IMG/VR virus record: IMGVR_UViG_3300003691_000002
Span: 1 to 64,000 of that record
Strand: one strand, 5' to 3'
DNA length: 64,000 nucleotides
Origin: a virus
In this document: positions 5,616 through 59,643 of the stretch, piece by piece
How the letters are laid out: each line of letters begins with the position of its first letter
Numbering within the stretch: position 1 is the first letter of the stretch
Position numbers and translations under genes: made by a program
Notes under the pieces: generated by a model
Database searches by the model: none
Told to the model about the DNA's origin: nothing
What the model saw: only the letters and a program-made list of their open reading frames with translations

Positions 5616-8600
5616 TGGATAAATCATCTAAATATACATACAGAGGTATAAATCAAGATATATCAAAGGGTAAACATCTACCTGAATATTATTTTGAAGC
5701 CCAACATATTAGGATATTAGCTACTGATACACAATCTTCTTTAGGGGTATCTAATGAAAAAGGAAATGAAGCAGTAATAATTATTCCTTATGTAGATATT
5801 GATACTAATACTAAAGAAATAACTGTTTCAGAAACAGATTTTACAGGAGAAGTAATACAAACACTTTTTTATACTAATTCTGAAATAGATACTCAAATAT
5901 CTAATAGTTTACTTCCCGCTTCTTCTCAAGGGCAAAAGATAATAAGCACTGTAGATACTAGGGAAGGTATTGTTATTTTTACTACAGATGATTTAGGAAT
6001 GGATTGTATATGGTATGTCCCTGCTGTATTGCAAGGAGATTATACCATTAATTTACTATATGTAAGAAATCTTAACTTTAGCAGTAATAACCCAATTCAA
6101 GCTATATTTAATTATGAAAATGATATTATAGAGAAAATATATTGGGTAGATGGCAACAACCAACTTAGATTTCTTAATTTAGACCATAGTATTGCTAATG
6201 GAGATAATGAAGAATTAATTGATATTAATTCTAATACTATAAATTTTGTAGGTAACTTTGATTTGTCTCAGCCTGTTGTAACAGGTGTATTACAAGGAGG
6301 AGGTCATACATCTGGTATGATTCAGTATGCATACAATCTTTATAGACTTAATGCGTCACAAACTACCCTATCCCCTGTTACAGATTTAATACCTTTAGGT
6401 AAAGGAGATAACTTAGGAGGAGGTGATGTAAATGAAGTTGTAGGAGCTACTCCCGTTATTACTATTGATAATATTGACCCTGAATATACTAATATCAGGT
6501 TATATGCAATTAAATACACGTCTTTAAATCAAGACCCTAGTGTTAGTTTATTAGCAGACAGAGAAATAAATTCTTCAAATTCTTTTACTTATTTTGATGA
6601 TGGAACAATAGAACAGACTGTTTCTATTGAAGAACTTCTTTTTTTAGGTAGTAGTCCTATTATACCTCAACATATAGAGACAAAAGATAACATCTTATTT
6701 TCTGCTAATATTAAACAAAACAATTTTGATGTAGATTTAGATTGTAGAGCTTTTAGTTATCTACAAGGAACAAGTACTAGTTATATATTAAATAATATTA
6801 TTCCTGATGACGGCTTTACTTTAAGCATTCCAAATGCTATTACAGGTATAAATGTTCAAGATGCAGGTAGTGATGTAGTACAAGTAGATGGTACCTTTAG
6901 TAATATTCCTGAAGAATTTGATTGTATAAATCCTAACTATGATTTTTATAGATACAAAATTAATAGTAATGAGCAGGGAGGAACAGGTAAATATGTGGAA
7001 TATTCTATTAATCCTTTAAATGTATCTAATTCTTCTAGAAAAAGATTCTTTAAATCTGATGAAATATATAGAATAGGCATTGTATTTTATAACAGATTAG
7101 GTCAAAAAACCTTTCCTAAATGGGTAGCTGATTTAAAAGCTCCCACAAAAAACTTAGAAGGAAGTTATAATATTCTTGAGGTTTCTTTAACTGCAGAATT
7201 TTATACTTGGCTTGCTAATGATGCTAATTTTGAAACTGAAGATGATAGACCTACTGGTTATAAAATTATAAGAGCAGACAGACAGTTTAAAGACAGGACT
7301 GTATTGTATCAAGGTATATTATCTTCTGCTATGTTTCAGGTAAAAGGAGATGCAGCTAAAACTTACGAAGATTATTATACGTTATCTAATAGGCAAGCTG
7401 TTCAAGATGATGCTGTAAAAATGCCTTCTTGGGCTATTAGACCTTTTGAATCTAGGTTATATTTACAACCTGATATTGGCGGAGGCTCTAATGTAACTAG
7501 TGGTAGAGTTATAGAAACATTGCATCTTTCTTGGTTAAATGATGCTTTGGATATAAATGACGCTAATTCTACAGATGGAGGGGAGATTCATACCGCTGTA
7601 CAAAGAGACAATAAAATATCTCAAACTTTTCAGCATACTAAAATGATGCAATTTTTTAGTCCTGAAATTATGTTTGATTTAGCTTCTACTAAAGAAGGGT
7701 TAGAGTTAAAAGTAAATGGGGTATGCGTAACTACTAATGAAGTAGTAAGATCACAAGAAACTTTTATTGCAACATCTTTAAGAAAAAATGGAGGTAAATT
7801 TGAATATTTTCCTACTAGACAAATTATAGATGATTTTAATATAGCAGATACTTTTAATACTCCTGGAGGTAGAAGTCCTCGTTATATAGGTCCTTCTGGC
7901 GCGTCTGATACTGTAGATTTTTATCAATTCTATAGGGAGTTTAATTCCTTTGAAAGAAACACTAATAATAATACTTACCCTATTTATGGAAAACCTGAGC
8001 TTTTAATAGAAGGACAAAAGGAAATTTCTTATAATGGCGACCCTAAATATAAGTTTATTAATAGCTTAGAAATATTTGCATCTGATGGCAATTTAGATGA
8101 TTGTAGTAATGGAGATGTTAACTGTACTCCTATTGTAAGTATAAATTCTTGGGCTAATAAAAGCGCTTTAATAGTATTAGGAGATGCAAATGACACTACT
8201 AATGCAAGAACTAAGTTAGAAGATTTATATACAGATACTAGTAATACAAACCCTAATGGGGTTATTTCGGTAGATGTTATTGTACCTGTGCTGAATGTAT
8301 ATTTTGGAAATATATATGGGGGAAATAGCTTTGAAGATAAAAAACTTAACACTTATTATGAGATAGGTAGTTATACAGACATTCAAACTAATAATGTTTT
8401 TATTGATTCTCCTGGAGATACTTATGTTCAAAACTTCCAATTTTTAAGAATAGGTAAGACAAACACAGAAACATTTGATACAGGTATTCCACAATTTAGT
8501 GAAATTATATCTTTTCCTGTAGAAACAACTGTAGATTTAGAAAATAGAAATGATTTTAGTATATTTGATTGGGATAGTAATTTTCAACCTACTTTTGAGC

Positions 8601-9739
8601 AATATACAAATTATAATACAGTTTATTCTCAACAACCTACTTTAATCCCTTTTGTAAGCACTGGTAGTAATTTTAAACCTGTAGAGTTATTTGATACTAG
8701 AGTATATGCTTCTAAAGTAAAAATACCTGGAGAAGATATAGATAGTTGGACAGATTTATTAATAAATGAATTTGAAGATTTAGACGGTAAATATGGTCCA
8801 ATTAATGCTTTAGTTAATTTTAAAGACAATTTATATACTTTCCAAGATGAAGCTATAGCAGGATTATCTATTAACCCAAGGGTTCAAATACAAGGCTCTG
8901 ATGGAGTTGCAGTAGAATTAGGTACAGGAGAGGTTTTATATGATGTTAATTATATAACTACTGTATCTGGCTCTATAAATAAATGGGGAGTGTTATCTAC
9001 TAATAAAGGTATTTATTATTATGATGCTTTAAATAAAGGATTAGGAAGAGTTCCTGACGCAGTAGGACCTATTCTTTCAGATGTTAAAGGGCTTCATACT
9101 TATTTTAATAATAATTATAATTATAATGATCTTAAAATAGACAATCCTTTACTTGGTACTGGAGCATTATTAGGATATGATAACTTTAACAAAGATGTTT
9201 ATATATCTCTTTTACAAGGAGAAGAATCCTTTACTAGGTTATTCAATGAAAATCAAAATGAATTTGTCGATTTAAAATTATATTATCCTAGAAATTATAT
9301 ATATAAAGGACCCAGAATGTTGCTTACTAATAGTGATAGAACTAAAATTTATGAGCAATATGCAGGAGATTACAATAAATATTTTGAAGAAAGAATACCT
9401 TCTAAAATAACATTAATGTTAAATCCAGATAGTGATTATGTTAAGGTGTTTAATAATATTATATTTAATTCTGAAGTATACTTAGAAGATATTGAACAAC
9501 CCCAACGTACGCTTACTCATATTAGAGCTTATTCTGAACACCAAGATTCTGGAAGAATTCCTTTATTAATTTCTAGATCAAGTAATGTTAGGAGAAAACT
9601 AAGAGCTTGGAAAGCAGATATTCCTAGACAAGGTAGACAAAGAATGAGAAATCCTTGGATATTTTTAGAATTAGAATATGATAATACATATAATGGTAAA
9701 TTTATATTACATGATATTATAGTAAATTACACATTATAA
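5615..9739 (+). CDS. Tail stabilization/muzzle protein (P22 gp10-like)
   Basis: 1374 aa, beta-rich; IYWVDG, YRIGIVFYN, GDTYVQ, LDGKYGPIN and RMRNPW motifs of the crAss Tstab family. Confidence 0.85.
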   Translation: MDKSSKYTYRGINQDISKGKHLPEYYFEAQHIRILATDTQSSLGVSNEKGNEAVIIIPYVDIDTNTKEITVSETDFTGEVIQTLFYTNSEIDTQISNSLLPASSQGQKIISTVDTREGIVIFTTDDLGMDCIWYVPAVLQGDYTINLLYVRNLNFSSNNPIQAIFNYENDIIEKIYWVDGNNQLRFLNLDHSIANGDNEELIDINSNTINFVGNFDLSQPVVTGVLQGGGHTSGMIQYAYNLYRLNASQTTLSPVTDLIPLGKGDNLGGGDVNEVVGATPVITIDNIDPEYTNIRLYAIKYTSLNQDPSVSLLADREINSSNSFTYFDDGTIEQTVSIEELLFLGSSPIIPQHIETKDNILFSANIKQNNFDVDLDCRAFSYLQGTSTSYILNNIIPDDGFTLSIPNAITGINVQDAGSDVVQVDGTFSNIPEEFDCINPNYDFYRYKINSNEQGGTGKYVEYSINPLNVSNSSRKRFFKSDEIYRIGIVFYNRLGQKTFPKWVADLKAPTKNLEGSYNILEVSLTAEFYTWLANDANFETEDDRPTGYKIIRADRQFKDRTVLYQGILSSAMFQVKGDAAKTYEDYYTLSNRQAVQDDAVKMPSWAIRPFESRLYLQPDIGGGSNVTSGRVIETLHLSWLNDALDINDANSTDGGEIHTAVQRDNKISQTFQHTKMMQFFSPEIMFDLASTKEGLELKVNGVCVTTNEVVRSQETFIATSLRKNGGKFEYFPTRQIIDDFNIADTFNTPGGRSPRYIGPSGASDTVDFYQFYREFNSFERNTNNNTYPIYGKPELLIEGQKEISYNGDPKYKFINSLEIFASDGNLDDCSNGDVNCTPIVSINSWANKSALIVLGDANDTTNARTKLEDLYTDTSNTNPNGVISVDVIVPVLNVYFGNIYGGNSFEDKKLNTYYEIGSYTDIQTNNVFIDSPGDTYVQNFQFLRIGKTNTETFDTGIPQFSEIISFPVETTVDLENRNDFSIFDWDSNFQPTFEQYTNYNTVYSQQPTLIPFVSTGSNFKPVELFDTRVYASKVKIPGEDIDSWTDLLINEFEDLDGKYGPINALVNFKDNLYTFQDEAIAGLSINPRVQIQGSDGVAVELGTGEVLYDVNYITTVSGSINKWGVLSTNKGIYYYDALNKGLGRVPDAVGPILSDVKGLHTYFNNNYNYNDLKIDNPLLGTGALLGYDNFNKDVYISLLQGEESFTRLFNENQNEFVDLKLYYPRNYIYKGPRMLLTNSDRTKIYEQYAGDYNKYFEERIPSKITLMLNPDSDYVKVFNNIIFNSEVYLEDIEQPQRTLTHIRAYSEHQDSGRIPLLISRSSNVRRKLRAWKADIPRQGRQRMRNPWIFLELEYDNTYNGKFILHDIIVNYTL

Positions 9740-9771
9740 TAAATTATATTATAATTATTGTTAAAAATTAT

Positions 9772-9806: not shown

Positions 9807-12800
9807 ATGCAAGAATTAGAATTCCTTATAAACCAATTAGTTAAAACTAAAGGAGGCACTCCCAAAGATTACTATGATCTTTTAGGGAGTGTTGCATTTC
9901 ATGAATCTGCTGGTACTATGAATCCTAGTATAAGACAATACGGAGGAGGTCCAGGTAGAGGAGTGTATCAGTTTGAAGAAGGTAAAAATGCAGGAGGTAT
10001 AACTGCTGCTAGAAGAACTAAAAGATTCTTGCAGAGTTTAGGAGCAAAAGTACCTAAATGGCTACAAGAAGCTGTTAAAGGTAATTCTTTAGATGCAACT
10101 AAATTAAAAAAAGAACAACAAGATGTTCTTTTTTTAGGTAATATGATAATGCATCCCAAAGCTGATTTTAAAAAAATATGGAATGGTGAAGAAACTGTTC
10201 CAGAATTTTGGGCTAATTATCATTGGGCAGGAAGTTCTGCACAACGAAAAAAGAAGTTAGAATCTTTTATGACTTCTTTAGAGAGATATAAAGAAGCAAA
10301 TCCAGATGCTTTTAATACTACTTTTGACCCAGAAGGTTCAGGTTATGACTATGCAACAGCGACTAAATATAATATACAGCCAGATGCCTCGGGACATTAT
10401 CCCAGCGTAGTGCCTGAAACTGGTCAAATTCTTAAAGGTAAAAAGCATCCTACTTATAGAGCAACTGCTAAAAAAGAAAAACAATTAGGCAGAGAGATTT
10501 ATAAAGGAGATGATAATCTTTATTATTCTAGAAAAGGTATTGGAGAATTAGCAAATACTAAAGTAAAGAAAGATAATACAATGGTCTTTCAGCCTATCAT
10601 TACTAATGATGTAATGAAAGACTTACCATCTACTTATGTACCTCCTATTGATGATGATTTAGAAGGATTAAATCAATTTGCAGTAGGGGGTCCTGTAGAC
10701 CCCCCTACAAAAAAGAAACCTCCTACAGTTGTTTATGGTACTCCTGAATATGCTAAAGCATATAGAGAAGGACTATTTGCAGAACTACCAAATGAATTAG
10801 ATGAGGTTGTTATTAATAGTAGTGTAGATTATAAGAAATATCCTTTGTATGATAGTCTTTCTGAAGATGAAAAAAAATACTTTAATGATAACAGCCCTAT
10901 TGGTAGAGCAATTAGAAGAAAGGCTTACACTAAAAAATCATTAGCCAGTGATGCTAAAAATATAGCACCACAATTAATTGAAGGAGCAACAGAAGCTTTG
11001 CAAATTCCTCAATCTGCTATGGTAGAAGGTATACAAGCTGTAAGAGGAAAAAATTATAACTTTGCAGATGCTTTACCTGGAAGTAATAATCAGCGCAGAC
11101 CTTCTCAATTTATTGGATATAAAAATCCTACAGGCATTTTACAAAATGTTGTTAATTTTGGTATTGATGCTCTTACTGACCCTGTAGATTTATTAGGAGC
11201 AGGTTATGTGGGAGATATTGGCAAAGTAGCAAAAGCTGCAAATAAAACTGATTTAGGTTTTGCTAGAAATAATCCTATTTCTTTACTTGTTGATTCTATT
11301 GAAAAAGGTATTTATAAGCTTGATTACAAAGATTCTCATCCTAAAATAAAAAAATATTTTGACGAGCAAGTAGACTTTTTTAAAAGTGAAAAAGGGAAAG
11401 ATAGGTTACAAGGAATGGGAATTGTAGGGGATAGATACACTAACTTCATAGATAAGTTAGAAAAATTAAAACTTACTTCTGGTCCTGAAACAGGGTCTTT
11501 ATATTCGCCAGGATTTGGAAAAATGCATATAAATATGTTCCAAGACAATAGTAGAGAGCTAGGAGATATAAGTTATAAATCAATAGTAGATCATGAGTTT
11601 GGGCATTTTATACAAGACCATAAAAACAGCCAATTAACAGGTAGATTAGCACAATTTCCTTTTAGAACATATGGAGATTGGGCTATGTCAAAAATAGATA
11701 TTAAAGATAAAACAATTGCAGATGTACCAAAAATTTTAAAAGACCCTAACATATCTTTTAAGCAATTTATAAAAGAATCTGATGGATATGCAACTAAAAG
11801 AGCACAACCAACATGGGCAGATGTAAAATTAGGAGAATTAAAATTAAAAAAAGGTAATAAAATACCTTCTAAATTAGAGAGAGAATTTTCTAATAGAGCT
11901 CAACAACATGATTATTTTAGAAGAGGTAATGGAAAATACGGAACAAACGTAGATAATATGACTGAGCGTTATCCTTTTCTAAGAGAGTACAGGCAAGCTA
12001 TGGTGGATAGAAAATATCTTAAAGATAAGTGGGAAGAGATTACTCCTGAGAAAGTTGCCTCTTTTCAAAGAGTATATCCTAAAATAAGATTAAATAATAT
12101 TATGAATAATACCCCTGCTAATCATCAACTTATAGCTGATCTTTTAAATTATACAGCAGGTAGTATTCCTATAGCCACACAACTGCCTAAAGAAAACAAT
12201 AAATATGCAGAAGGTGGGTCAGTAAATTCTAATTGTGGTGGTCCAGGTCAGCCTCCTTGTAAAGAAAACGATTCTTTACCAAAATATTTAACTCCCACAA
12301 AAAAAGGTTTTAAGTTAAACCCATATGAATTACCTGATACTAATAAACTAGAGCATGAAAGAAAATGGATGCTTAATTGGTTAAAATCTCCAGGAAGAAA
12401 TAAACAATTTGAATCGTTATCTAGAACTCAGTACGAAGAAGATCACCCACTAAAAAATTGGTGGTATAATAATGTTCCATCCGAAAAAGAAAAAAAAGAA
12501 CGTATATTAGAAGAATATAATAAAGAAATAAAAAATATAGTTTTAAATAATGTAGAAACTGTTAAATATAAAGGAGGAGTAGATGTTCCTGGTAATACTT
12601 ATATGTCGTCTGCAATAGGTGCTTATTCTCCTTTGGGTCATTATATCTATTTCCCATATTGGTTAGAAGATCCTGAAAATACAGATAAAGGAGCAGCTGC
12701 TCATGAAACAGCCCATGCTTCACGTATTGATAAATTTAAAGGTTCTAAAGATATACTTACAAATGTTTTAAAAAATGATAAAAAGTACAAAAATTTAAAT

Positions 12801-56366: not shown

Positions 56367-57305
56367 TTAATTATTAATTTGTTTTAAAGAAGTATATACT
56401 TTTTGCATATTTGTTATATCATCTGGTTTAGGTAATTCTTTAAAAAAATTAACTGCACCATCAAAAAACAAAGGAGCAACAGTACCTCCTCCTCCACTTC
56501 TACCTCCCAAAATTTCTAAAAATCTGATATGATCTCTAAAAGCTTTAATATCATACCCCATATATTCTGGAAGTTCATGTCTAAAGGGACTAAATAATCC
56601 CATAATTAAATCAGCATCACGTTGAGTTAATTTACAATCACCTAATCCATTCAAGGTAGGTTTAAGTTTATTAGCTTTAGCGTGTTCAAGAGATTCTTGA
56701 GAAGCTGCTTGTTGTTGAATAACAACAGGTATATAATTATATTTATTTCTAAGTAAAATCAAATAATCAGAAGATAATTTTGTAATAGCTTGGTGTAAAC
56801 TTGTATTATTTTCAGGAGTAATAAGTCCAACATGATCTATTATTATCATAACATATTCATCTGGATTATTAGGCTGATAATAATCATCTATCTCTATTTT
56901 TTGTGTTTTACCTGTTTTGGGATCAGTAATCTCAATTTCTTTTTTATGTTGAGTACCATTAGCTTGCGCGTATTCTCTTAGTATTTTATAAATTCCAAAA
57001 GGATTTCTAATGTTATCTATAAAAGTTACTAATTCTTCTATTTTTTCAAAATAAGGTTTGTATTCCTCTATTTTTTTTAAAATTTCTGGTGACAATATTT
57101 TACTACTTTTAGTACTTCTAAGATCACTAGGAGCCACTCTAATGCCTTCTTTTAAATATAATATATTAGAAAAAGCAGAGAGCATTTTTTGTTCTTTAGA
57201 CATTTCTAAACTAAAATAAAATATTTTTAATTTTATGTTTAGATTTTCATCAATTACTTTGCGAATAGGATTATAAACAAATAACCAATCAGTTATTTGC
57301 GTTTT
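56367..57305 (-). CDS. dnaB: Replicative DnaB-like helicase, exon 2
   Basis: Starts KTQITDWLF (second half of Walker A); FSLEM, IIDH, VIQQQ and RDAD motifs. Confidence 0.9.
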   Translation of the reverse strand, partial: KTQITDWLFVYNPIRKVIDENLNIKLKIFYFSLEMSKEQKMLSAFSNILYLKEGIRVAPSDLRSTKSSKILSPEILKKIEEYKPYFEKIEELVTFIDNIRNPFGIYKILREYAQANGTQHKKEIEITDPKTGKTQKIEIDDYYQPNNPDEYVMIIIDHVGLITPENNTSLHQAITKLSSDYLILLRNKYNYIPVVIQQQAASQESLEHAKANKLKPTLNGLGDCKLTQRDADLIMGLFSPFRHELPEYMGYDIKAFRDHIRFLEILGGRSGGGGTVAPLFFDGAVNFFKELPKPDDITNMQKVYTSLKQINN

Positions 57306-57382
57306 CAATTTGTTACTAAAAAAGAAAATTCTTTTTCGATTAGGCCATTTCTGCCTAATTCTATAATTTAATATATAAAAAA

Positions 57383-58129
57383 TTATTCTACTAATATTAC
57401 TTCCTCATAAACAACTGAATCAAATACTACTGCATTTGAAAAATCTAATTCACTTTTATTAATAATCCAAACTTTAATATTGTTACTAGATTTTACATTA
57501 TGGGTTGTGTGAGTTAAAACTGAAGGATAATTAGATAAAACAGTATCAATAATACCATATCTAAGTTGAGCTTTTACTTCTGGTATTTCTTCCTCTTCTG
57601 CATCATTAAATTTATTATTTTCATCTGCTATATTAGTAGATAATAAAAAAAGAGTATTATCCATTTCTTCCATAACAGTGTTTATAGTAGATGCAAAAAT
57701 AGCTTCTGTAACAATATTTTTATCTTTTACTAAATTGTTATAAGTTAAAAATTCATCAAATACTTTATTATTTAGTAAAGAAGAAATAAAAGGATTAATT
57801 CCATAAATTTCTAAAATAGCACAACTAATAGGAGATTGTGTGTAAGAAAAGTTATCAAAAATATTTTTTAAAGTAAATATTTTTCCTTCATTATATATTA
57901 AAGATAAATCTGTATTTTTTTGATGTAATTTTAACTTATTAATATCAAATTTTTCTTCTTCTTGTTTAACAATTTGGAAAAGTGATTTACTATATTGTTG
58001 AAGAAGATTTAAATCATTTATAATTTCATATTTATCTTCTGTTTCATTTTCAACATTATAGATTTTATTAACAGATATTCTAAAATTTTTAGAATTTGTA
58101 CATCTAATTTGTGTTGTCTTGAGATTCAT
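57383..58129 (-). CDS. Intron-nested hypothetical protein (P9 loop)
   Basis: 248-aa ORF bounded by the P9 strands; no homing endonuclease motif. Confidence 0.8.
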   Translation of the reverse strand: MNLKTTQIRCTNSKNFRISVNKIYNVENETEDKYEIINDLNLLQQYSKSLFQIVKQEEEKFDINKLKLHQKNTDLSLIYNEGKIFTLKNIFDNFSYTQSPISCAILEIYGINPFISSLLNNKVFDEFLTYNNLVKDKNIVTEAIFASTINTVMEEMDNTLFLLSTNIADENNKFNDAEEEEIPEVKAQLRYGIIDTVLSNYPSVLTHTTHNVKSSNNIKVWIINKSELDFSNAVVFDSVVYEEVILVE

Positions 58130-58285
58130 TTTTATAATTTTTTATATTTTATATTTATAGTTCGGACTGTCTCATCAACCTAATTACAACATTTTTTACA
58201 TTGTAATGCTTGATGTAATAAATAATCAGGTACATAAAATATATTTGTACAATTATTATTACAACATTCTTTTGGTTTTTTTACA

Positions 58286-58720
58286 TTATAATCCATATTT
58301 TTTTAATTTTTCATCAAGTAATGGTTTTTCTTCATCTGGTAAAGAATCCCAATATTCCATTAAAATAAAATATACTTTTTTATAATCAGGTTGTTCCTTG
58401 TCAGTCTCTACACCGTTTTGTAAAATTAATTCAATTTCATACAAAGTATTTATAGATGTTCTTTTTCCATTTTGATAATCTATACATAATTGTTTAATTT
58501 TATCAAGTGACGGCACGGGATTGTCTTCAACTAATAAATTGTAATCTGGTTTATTATACCAATCTTCTCTATATTTAGTTTTTTCTTTTTCAATTTCTTG
58601 AACTTTTTCATCTACTAATTGTTTAAGAAGTTCTATTTCATTTTTATGAAAAATTAGATTAAAATTTAATTTATATTGAATATTTTGTAAATCTACATAA
58701 TTTATTGGTATTTTTTTCAT
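58286..58720 (-). CDS. Intron-nested hypothetical protein overlapping the ribozyme core
   Basis: 144-aa open frame running through Q (EDNPVP) and R/P8 (NGVETDKEQPDY). Confidence 0.7.
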   Translation of the reverse strand: MKKIPINYVDLQNIQYKLNFNLIFHKNEIELLKQLVDEKVQEIEKEKTKYREDWYNKPDYNLLVEDNPVPSLDKIKQLCIDYQNGKRTSINTLYEIELILQNGVETDKEQPDYKKVYFILMEYWDSLPDEEKPLLDEKLKKYGL

Positions 58721-58758
58721 TGATTACATTTTATAATATTAAAGATTTTCCCCGTTTG

Positions 58759-59043
58759 CTAAAATTTTTCTTGCACAAATTTTAAAAACTCTGCAATAAT
58801 TTTATCAGGATTTTCATTTTTATAAATTTGGCAAAATTGGCGTGCTAACTCTAATAATGATTCATAGTAATCATCTTGAATTAACTGAATGTTCCTAATT
58901 TCTATTAAATTAGGAAATTTAACAGGAAGTTTTCTTTGTAGACTATTAACATTGTCTACTCTTACAAATTTTGTTATGATTTTCTCATCAAAAATTGTAT
59001 CATCATCTGTTTCTACAAGTAATTCAAGAAAGTATGTTTTCAT
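58759..59043 (-). CDS. Intron-nested hypothetical protein
   Basis: 94-aa ORF, ATGA-coupled to the upstream ORF; stop lies 2 nt before the P element. Confidence 0.7.
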   Translation of the reverse strand: MKTYFLELLVETDDDTIFDEKIITKFVRVDNVNSLQRKLPVKFPNLIEIRNIQLIQDDYYESLLELARQFCQIYKNENPDKIIAEFLKFVQEKF

Positions 59044-59423
59044 TTTCTTTTACGAGAATAAATTATTGAAGAGTCAGGTAATAAAATATAATCTTTGCCT
59101 CTAAAAGCATATCTAAGAATATCTTTTGGATTTTTCTCTATACTTTTTCCTACTACTCTATTATTTATATCCATTAAATAAATACTTCTTGTATTATTTC
59201 TTTTATTAATATTGATAGTAGGAGTAAGTAAATTTAATTTTGCTTTTTTAGAAATTCTTTTAGATAAAACTTTAATAGTTTTATAAATAACATCTTTAAG
59301 AACTATATTTTCTCCAGTAATTTCTTTTAAAGCGTGTAAATTAAATCCTTCTTCTTCGGGAAAAAATTCATTTATTACCTCTAATACAATTAATTCTTTT
59401 TCATTTTTTGTATCTACATTCAT
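59040..59423 (-). CDS. Intron-nested hypothetical protein
   Basis: 127-aa ORF starting just after the P3 5' strand. Confidence 0.7.
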   Translation of the reverse strand: MNVDTKNEKELIVLEVINEFFPEEEGFNLHALKEITGENIVLKDVIYKTIKVLSKRISKKAKLNLLTPTININKRNNTRSIYLMDINNRVVGKSIEKNPKDILRYAFRGKDYILLPDSSIIYSRKRK

Positions 59424-59478
59424 TTTAACTTAATTCGGAATTTGCTGTAAATGTTACCACTTACAGGGGCAAAACTTT

Positions 59479-59643
59479 ACCCACTTTCGTATTCGCAGTT
59501 AGTAAATAATATTTACCTTGTTCAATACCTGGATTTTCATTTTCAAAACGAGGTAATCCCCAAGGAATACAATTCACATGACCGTCAAGGATTCTGTCTC
59601 TACGATCATTTATATCTTTTAAAACTCTATTATATAAGCTCAT
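59479..59643 (-). CDS. dnaB: Replicative DnaB-like helicase, exon 1 (55 codons)
   Basis: NCIPWGLPRF...PGIEQGKYYLLTANTKVG, the crAss DnaB N-terminus up to the Walker A glycine. Confidence 0.9.

Follow-up and report, generated by a model that had tools for sequence, protein, structure and literature searches.

A probable protein-coding gene overprinted on the ribozyme core of a likely group I-type intron that splits the helicase gene of a crAss-like phage from the sea

The window examined here is a stretch of 64,000 nucleotides (nt), positions 1 to 64,000 of the 88,690-bp IMG/VR virus record IMGVR_UViG_3300003691_000002. On its minus strand, a gene for a DnaB-like helicase is split by an element that is very probably a self-splicing group I-type intron, atypical in the one or two hairpins inserted between P3 and P4, and an open reading frame (ORF) of 144 amino acids (aa), designated ORF144, passes through the catalytic core of this intron. 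The comparison with related introns makes it likely that ORF144 is a genuine protein-coding gene overprinting the core, situated within a clade-wide in-frame conduit whose loops hold coding cassettes. The element is present as a single copy in the record, and all genes around the locus lie on the minus strand. The nearest named relatives of the window phage are Cellulophaga phage phi14:2 and cr108_1, both members of the Crassvirales, Steigviridae. In addition, 10% of the sampled words of the stretch occur in one marine-sediment metatranscriptome run, a figure that carries no information on habitat or expression.

Reading frame through the ribozyme core

The AUG of ORF144 (58720) is situated between the two strands of P5 and its stop codon (58288-58286) between the two strands of P8, and the frame overlaps both core blocks in between, which comprise about 53 nt of helices and junctions (Table 1). 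The first-pass annotation, made from the sequence alone, had described a frame at 58286-58720 that starts in the P5 loop and stops in the P8 loop. Such a frame of 144 aa indeed exists, on the minus strand, which had been left unstated; the coordinates of the P5 and P8 strands agree with these end points, the quoted codons are present (GAA GAC AAT CCC GTG CCG at 58528-58511 and AAC GGT GTA GAG ACT GAC AAG GAA CAA CCT GAT TAT at 58417-58382), and the quoted C-terminus is correct according to the ORF list. Furthermore, the helix labels given at that stage (P5 loop, P5'/Q, P6 loop, R/P7/P3'/P8 and P8 loop) coincide with the pairings that were tested by covariation, and the assignment to a group I-type intron in a dnaB-like gene is borne out.

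A frame of this length had been judged improbable by chance. Shuffling the mononucleotides of the 2173-nt intron 2000 times yields no open run of at least 145 codons (maximum 144, mean 70.6), and the stronger, comparative test points in the same direction in all related introns. For this comparison, relatives were gathered by frame-blind scans of IMG/VR with three exact core motifs from the window, and 20 related loci, one of them in phi14:2, remained after the removal of chance hits. The scans with the S and Q 14-mers returned mostly chance matches, and a locus was retained only if Q and R, as well as S where it occurs, followed one another in the right order; chance matches of this kind (L004, L139 and L201) and copies of phi14:2 (L001 and L011) were excluded. 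A metagenome scan with peptide patterns contributed 7 further unique members, five other loci being removed as duplicates.

In 21/21 members found with the DNA motifs, no stop interrupts the frame ..DNPVPS[LI]....NGVET[DN].. between a point ahead of P4' and the end of P6', and together with the peptide-pattern members it is open from Q to R in 28/28 unique members. Stops or frameshifts in the homologous introns, which the first-pass annotation had named as refuting evidence, are seen between Q and R in 0/28. Simultaneously, the distance from P4' to P6' (Q to R) ranges from 25 to 196 nt and takes at least 16 different lengths, all of which are 1 mod 3 (28/28). The other two frames are open in this region for 5-43 codons only, blocked by invariant stops of the core itself, namely UAG within J6/7 and UGA behind P6. 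In the P6 loops, 0 stops are found among 764 in-frame codons, versus 77/743 and 124/743 in the other two frames, and the codons there show 8% G+C at third positions and 26% G at first positions, a composition typical of coding sequence.

Beyond the P6 domain, the frame continues past P7 in 26 of the 28 members, and it terminates at a UAG within the P8 3' strand in 15 of the 26 members with a recognisable P7 3' strand; 9 nt separate this UAG from the J8/7-P7' segment that follows. An ORF of 26 codons is retained in frame even in L169, a compact member with a P6 loop of about 10 nt and a P8 hairpin of 20 nt, and the AUG of the compact forms is found 15-30 nt ahead of P4'. The three codon positions are about equally conserved within the core blocks (0.89, 0.91 and 0.88 in one, 0.83, 0.90 and 0.86 in the other), which is what a constraint acting on the RNA would be expected to produce.

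Helicase exons and intron identity

The two halves of the DnaB-like helicase are encoded by a 60-aa ORF (59643-59461) and a 313-aa ORF (57308-56367), both of which match PHROG 19, and Pfam DnaB_C is recognised on the helicase with 34.2 bits against a cut-off of 27. The gene break falls within the Walker A (P-loop) codons. When the exons are joined by script after U59479 and before A57305, that is, between GGU and AAA, the product aligns with the uninterrupted helicase of cr108_1 over residues 1-365 with 48% identity, gap-free where VGK meets TQI, and the Walker A motif becomes intact (..VGKTQ.. aligned to ..IGKTQ.. of cr108_1). The exon junction is thereby fixed, because the joined product aligns without a gap to an uninterrupted homologue. 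The same element is situated at the same helicase codon in phi14:2, L149, L183 and others; in phi14:2 the helicase is broken there by about 2.6 kb, and excision restores the frame exactly in phi14:2, L149 and L183 too.

The element also displays the group I features, including the U.G pair of P1, a terminal G, a P4-P6 domain (6 bp in P4, 5 bp in P5 and 5 bp in P6) and a P3-P8 pseudoknot with P7. The 5' splice site follows U59479, G57306 directly precedes exon 2, and the exon-1 frame runs into a UAA inside P2, 5 codons past the splice site. In relatives at other sites, exon and guide change together in P1 (CCGU/GCGG, UGGU/GCCA and GCGU/GCGC). Among 26 members, P7 occurs as GACUA/UAGUC in 13, GACUG/CAGUC in 12 and GACUU/AAGUC in 1. 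An earlier search for P3 that required pairing was circular, and the P3 5' strand was then located by context alone: 15 members pair 4/4 and 3 members 3/4, compared with 0-3/4 for ten control matches in the same loci. The context search missed phi14:2 and L211, in which the pairing-requiring search gives 4/4 pairs. Six P3 combinations are observed (UUCC/GGAA, CUCA/UGAG, CUCU/AGAG, CUCU/GGAG, CUCG/CGAG and CUCA/UGGG), and a seventh, CUCC/GGAG, in L251. In addition, P4 covaries in L013 (CGAGG with CUCG) and P5 in L012 (CCUUU/AAAGG), P6 shows a one-sided change from G.U to G-C in L175 and L205, and many pair types are present in P8 across the members. The LAGLIDADG_2 endonuclease gene just after P7 in L133, described below, also speaks for an intron.

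In the RefSeq record of phi14:2 (NC_021806.1; L003 in the present set), the helicase is split into g024, 'hypothetical protein' (7983-8177), and g029, 'DnaB' (10866-11708), with no join, unlike the DNA polymerase of the same record, which is annotated as joined. The intron, which is not annotated there, encloses the genes g025-g028, of which g027 corresponds to ORF144.

ORF144 protein and its modules

ORF144 is composed of parts encoded by the L5, L6 and L8 loops, separated by the peptides that the core blocks specify. The C-terminal module, whose first codons CCU GAU UAU are at the same time the P8 5' strand, has 18 invariant positions across 4 proteins (alignment A1), and it ends small free-standing proteins at 13 viral loci, in none of which intron motifs are found. 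In an exhaustive phmmer search, the best stretch of 77 out of 84 representatives ends at residues 140-144, and the remaining 7 match the core or L6. Of 87 proteins read, 78 contain the module without core motifs, 8 contain core motifs only, and one, P0011, contains both and is hence a second core-spanning ORF fused to the same C-terminal module. The identical 144-aa sequence has been recorded from 5 contigs. The L6 module of the window recurs in P0002, P0003, P0009 and P0010 with 51-65% identity over the best stretch (59-65% in P0003 and P0009), and two clearly homologous L6 pairs yield dN/dS values of 0.38 and 0.25.

No endonuclease match is obtained for ORF144 in Pfam, PHROGs or NCBIfam, in agreement with the first-pass view that the protein is not a recognisable endonuclease. 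The sole library match is a weak one to a PHROGs 'DNA polymerase' family (E 0.004), and Pfam has no family covering the C-terminal module. The ESM Atlas model of ORF144 is poor (pTM 0.35) and gave no usable feature match, and a search of the PDB with a profile of the module yielded no match at E below 0.2. In the free-standing relatives, the partner domains stay below threshold (Lar_restr_allev with 26.5 bits against a cut-off of 28.6; zf-C4_ClpX with 25.4 against 27). Ten neighbouring ORFs from six loci gave 4 matches in three loci, to an exonuclease, a primase-helicase, a Gam-like protein and an integrase. These partners and neighbours are too weak a basis for naming a function of the module.

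In the L8 loop of the window, the end of ORF144 overlaps a 38-aa Cys-rich ORF in the +1 frame, and a run of seven A (58304-58298) lies by the offset between the two. In the free-standing protein of L246, a single frame encodes the module and, after it, a zinc-ribbon-like segment (CxxC...CxxC), and L8 of the window therefore looks like a gene with the two parts seen in L246 that are out of register by 1 nt. This offset may reflect frameshifting, the presence of two genes or a mutation of recent date. Furthermore, the 9-nt core of the P8 5' strand occurs twice in identical form on the minus strand, at 58382-58390 and 58222-58230, 160 nt apart, and either copy could pair with the P8 3' strand; this direct repeat may be a trace of the way in which the C-terminal module entered the loop.

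Proposed mechanism and alternative explanations

In the proposed model, the intron that splits the DnaB-like helicase gene of this marine phage contains a conserved translational conduit, leading from the L5 AUG via P5'/P4'/P6 to L6, then via P6'/J6-7/P7/P3'/P8 to L8, and usually ending at the P8' UAG. L5, L6 and L8 would act as exchangeable coding cassettes, the L8 cassette of the window probably having arisen by capture of a small protein module that is widespread in phages, and the predicted product would be a mosaic small protein rather than a recognisable endonuclease. The anatomy of the intron with its covariation, the exon junction, the conservation of the frame over the family, the coding signatures of the loops and the occurrence of the module outside the intron are shown by the present analysis, and the relation between translation and catalysis is inferred. 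A ribosome in the ORF144 frame would have to melt P4, P6, P7, P3 and P8, so translation and catalysis would have to alternate on one RNA molecule. Translation might precede folding, with ribosomes trailing the polymerase on the nascent transcript and leaving at or near P8', or it might take place on the excised intron. The passage of ribosomes could be tolerated, could aid folding or could serve as a timing device.

Several observations weigh against this model. In the case of the intron, no match to Rfam Intron_gpI is found in the window at the gathering score, no Rfam group I match in the intron region or in the compact loci L169 and L038 even when E values of up to 10 are admitted, and none at E up to 1 in six related loci. 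Moreover, one or two hairpins are located between the P3 5' strand and the AA/AAA preceding P4, where typical group I architecture has a junction of a few nucleotides, and to our knowledge the standard peripheral elements of group I introns do not include an insertion between P3 and P4. All members, however, have long insertions, with P1-P3 distant from P4, and because the covariation is strong, the Rfam failure is read as a limit of the models on heavily interrupted introns and not as evidence against an intron. With Rfam blind to the element, the case for the intron consequently rests on the comparison with related sequences. In the case of the frame, the 7 peptide-pattern members are biased toward an open frame, and the members are related, so that sequence counts overstate independent events. 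The compact relative L038 (about 9930-10060), not counted among the 28 members on account of its deviating R motif, lacks a core ORF and contains a stop in P6, from which it follows that the ribozyme itself does not need the frame. The window itself deviates from the family pattern, its R-to-S distance of 243 nt being 0 mod 3 instead of the usual 2 and the stop of ORF144 lying 115 nt before P7'. In the case of the protein, the loop-encoded parts are mostly unalignable across the family, residues 1-40 of ORF144 have no relative in the phmmer search, and most low-identity pairs give dN/dS values scattered about 0.4-1.5, which are not meaningful; selection at the amino-acid level is thus shown for a few modules only.

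The selected trait might instead be uninterrupted translation from the L5 AUG to P8', and not the protein. Trailing ribosomes would keep the AU-rich loops and the half-made core unfolded until the last core strands are made, might also shield the RNA from decay or premature termination, and would then stop at P8' and free the ribozyme. Such ribosome-gated folding is in keeping with a frame that is maintained while the loop-encoded sequence mostly cannot be aligned, with the predominant stop at the P8' UAG just ahead of J8/7-P7', with the 26-codon ORF persisting in L169, and with the AUG of the compact forms, which is so close to P4' that initiation must melt P5 and P4. Nevertheless, it leaves the conservation of the C-terminal and L6 modules as proteins unaccounted for, the P8' UAG is conserved for pairing anyway, the compact L038 does without the ORF, and the ORF of the window ends too early, which together make this explanation rather unlikely. 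A wider version, in which a whole clade has obligatory translation through the core with plug-in modules, and ribosome-gated folding couples the splicing of an essential replication gene to intron translation, is likewise doubtful. The first-pass annotation had gone on to propose a switch, in which translation of ORF144 and splicing of the helicase are mutually exclusive and are used to time replication. The frame is conserved and physically overlaps P4, P6, P7, P3 and P8, and the host gene, split in Walker A, is essential for replication; yet nothing ties the ORF to timing, the cargo modules vary between members, and the same intron family with the same frame occurs in other host genes or sites (L008, L009, L169 and L202), which indicates that the feature is a property of the intron rather than a means of controlling the helicase. 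The timing switch is accordingly regarded as quite improbable.

There is little probability, too, that the core-spanning ORF encodes an intron factor, such as a new type of homing endonuclease, a maturase or a DNA-binding protein. About half of the first 21 members (9 by eye) have Cys-rich, zinc-ribbon-like C-termini, and most members contain no other recognisable endonuclease. In L133, the core-spanning frame halts right after P7, and a LAGLIDADG_2 endonuclease gene follows as a separate ORF between P7 and a compact P8 (1653-2276, minus strand, E 3e-38); the frame stops at the same place in L258. Against such a factor stand the missing match to any nuclease or maturase family, the restriction of the parts common to all members to those dictated by the RNA core, and the C-terminal module of the window, which is mostly a free-standing phage protein unconnected with introns. 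Finally, the locus could contain no intron at all, and merely a split or dead helicase gene with a four-gene cassette in which the open frame is incidental, as the failure of Rfam and the lack of an endonuclease in the window copy might suggest. This is extremely improbable, given that the break falls in the P-loop codons and joining of the exons restores the frame exactly, that a U.G pair marks the 5' site and a G the 3' end, that P1, P2, P3, P4, P7 and P8 covary, that the same element recurs at the same codon in phi14:2, L149, L183 and others, and that the frame statistics are as described above. A protein-coding ORF144 within an in-frame conduit is thus retained as the preferred explanation.

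Intron architecture

The coordinates of the intron, its helices, its ORFs and the helicase exons are listed in Table 1.

Table 1. Features of the helicase locus in the window (positions counted from the first letter of the 64,000-nt stretch)
Feature	Position	Strand	Description
Helicase exon 1	59479..59643	-	55 codons, ends ...VG at GGU; PHROG 19; aligns from residue 1 to cr108_1 helicase
Group I-type intron (very probable)	57306..59478	-	2173 nt, 22% G+C; last base G57306
P1	59467..59482	-	GGGUAA/UUGCCC, U.G pair at the splice site between GGGU and AA; minimum-energy fold
P2 hairpin	59445..59466	-	9 bp; minimum-energy fold; differs on both strands in phi14:2
P3 5' strand	59437..59440	-	UUCC; pairs with GGAA at 58397-58394
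Hairpin B, between P3 and P4	58758..59429	-	8-bp stem 59429-59422/58765-58758
P4 5' strand, J4/5, P5 5' strand	58741..58755	-	P4 58755-58750; P5 58745-58741; AAA before P4
ORF144	58286..58720	-	144 aa; L5 N-terminal part, EDNPVPSL, L6 module, NGVETDKEQP, C-terminal module
Core block 1 in ORF144	58510..58528	-	P5 3' strand 58528-58524, J5/4, P4 3' strand 58520-58515, P6 5' strand 58514-58510
Core block 2 in ORF144	58382..58416	-	P6 3' strand 58416-58412, J6/7, P7 5' strand 58406-58402, P3', P8
Core block 2, remainder	P3 3' strand 58397-58394, P8 5' strand 58393-58382	-	
C-terminal module coding sequence	58289..58390	-	residues 111-144, PDYKK.Y.ILMEYWDSLPDEEK....L...GL
38-aa Cys-rich ORF	58180..58296	-	+1 frame; overlaps ORF144 end; stops at the usual P8' UAG of the family
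P8 3' strand, J8/7, P7 3' strand	58164..58187	-	P8 3' strand 58187-58176, J8/7 58175-58170, P7 3' strand 58169-58165
ORF248 in P9 loop	57383..58129	-	homologue of phi14:2 g028, tblastn E 1.6e-9
3'-terminal hairpins	57318..57358	-	P9.1-like 57358-57340, P9.2-like 57336-57318; minimum-energy folds
Helicase exon 2	56367..57305	-	starts AAA ACG = K T of Walker A; Pfam DnaB_C

The intron carries four ORFs on the same strand, of 127, 94, 144 and 248 aa, and the 38-aa ORF. ORF127 (59423-59040) and ORF94 (59043-58759) are contained in the loop of hairpin B, which measures about 650 nt, and the P6 loop of the window is 93 nt long. ORF248 is closed by the P9 stem, followed by the two terminal hairpins and the final G. 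ORF248 represents a conserved cargo of the P9 loop, with a counterpart in L003 at 10122-10736 and, by eye, similar starts in L010 and L171 (..C[IV][ND]A[KR]NY.LT.G..Y..); its family annotation is limited to sub-threshold matches to DUFs.

Extra hairpins between P3 and P4 are described for the window, L013, L137, L211 and L008. In L013, the stem of hairpin B closes a GAAA tetraloop, and the region is compact in L137, where, as in similar members, a CCUA-GAAA-UAGG hairpin and then a second hairpin are found between P3 and P4. The P5 loops of L137 and L175 contain a separate ORF of roughly 100 aa (M..TT..CCALCQ...), a recurrent cargo gene which ends just before the AUG of the core-spanning ORF. 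The core of L038 has a short P5, a different P6 stem and a P8 hairpin of 15 nt. In L008, two 5' ends of the intron family (P1-P2-P3 strands) lie within 2.3 kb, about 2.2 kb apart, pointing to a pair of adjacent introns of this type. In L010, a 104-kb viral contig, a tRNA gene (75 bits) is located at 9684-9757, about 1.4 kb from the intron.

Significance and comparison with known systems

The family presented here offers a natural case with many members in which one stretch of RNA serves as ribozyme core and as message, the frame being kept over many independent insertions and deletions. Since one member resides in a cultured phage, Cellulophaga phage phi14:2 (g027), the coexistence of translation and ribozyme folding in bacteria becomes testable. 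Intron loops can act as in-frame cassettes which capture ordinary phage genes. The helicase of phi14:2, like that of its relatives, is wrongly annotated as a pair of distinct genes, and the whole intron family escapes the curated RNA models. Were the wider version with obligatory translation through the core true, the splicing of a replication gene would be coupled to the translation of its intron.

In the td intron of T4, the expression of I-TevI is controlled by a sequestered ribosome-binding site and by late transcripts. As in that system, ribosomes on an ORF reaching the intron core would interfere with its folding, but initiation of the Bacteroidota type differs, and no control element of this sort was found in the present intron, where no search aimed at one was made. 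Certain mitochondrial group I introns contain ORFs for LAGLIDADG or GIY-YIG maturases or endonucleases that are fused to the upstream exon and read through the core helices. These introns and the present one share long frames through the P1-P8 sequences of the ribozyme, whereas in the present intron the exon frame ends 5 codons in and translation of the core-spanning ORF would begin at a separate AUG in L5.

The expression of endonuclease ORFs that overlap group I cores is stated to be tightly controlled (Hausner et al. 2014, PMC3984707). In the ND5-717 giant intron of corallimorpharian mitochondria (PMC6545197), group I loops likewise carry genes other than endonucleases. In gut crAss-like phages, introns were found via endonuclease domains in the genes for MCP, PolB, the primase and also ATP_43b (Yutin et al. 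2021, PMC7886860); like, very probably, the present element, these are self-splicing introns within genes of the Crassvirales for core replication and structural functions. In the available part of that article, the helicase gene appears only in the conserved-gene list, with no helicase intron, overlap of an ORF with a core or marine clade, and the available part of PMC10136315 does not mention this helicase intron. No description of the helicase intron or its ORF was found in the literature searched; the figure on introns in the supplement to Yutin et al. 2021 may be relevant to this point.

The closest parallel is given by endonuclease ORFs that overlap group I cores, explained as 'core creep' by Edgell, Chalamcharla and Belfort (2011, PMC3073962). 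Table 1 of that article includes overlaps of 56 nt (P6a/P7/P7.1, Bacillus thuringiensis nrdF) and of 81 nt (P6/P7/P3/P8/P9.0/P9, Synechococcus lividus LSU). The first-pass annotation had called a non-endonuclease gene over P7 unusual; the non-endonuclease character stands, but an overlap with P7 as such has precedents among these endonuclease ORFs. In both cases, the frame shares nucleotides with essential helices and is subject to a double constraint at the RNA and protein levels. The core-creep ORFs, however, creep outward from one loop, whereas ORF144 crosses two core blocks and three loops (L5, L6 and L8). Endonuclease ORFs overlapping group I cores are therefore already established, and what differs here is a non-endonuclease ORF, spanning three loops and two core blocks, in a frame that is clade-wide (28/28), with swappable cassettes, at least 16 loop lengths and a 26-codon remnant in a compact member.

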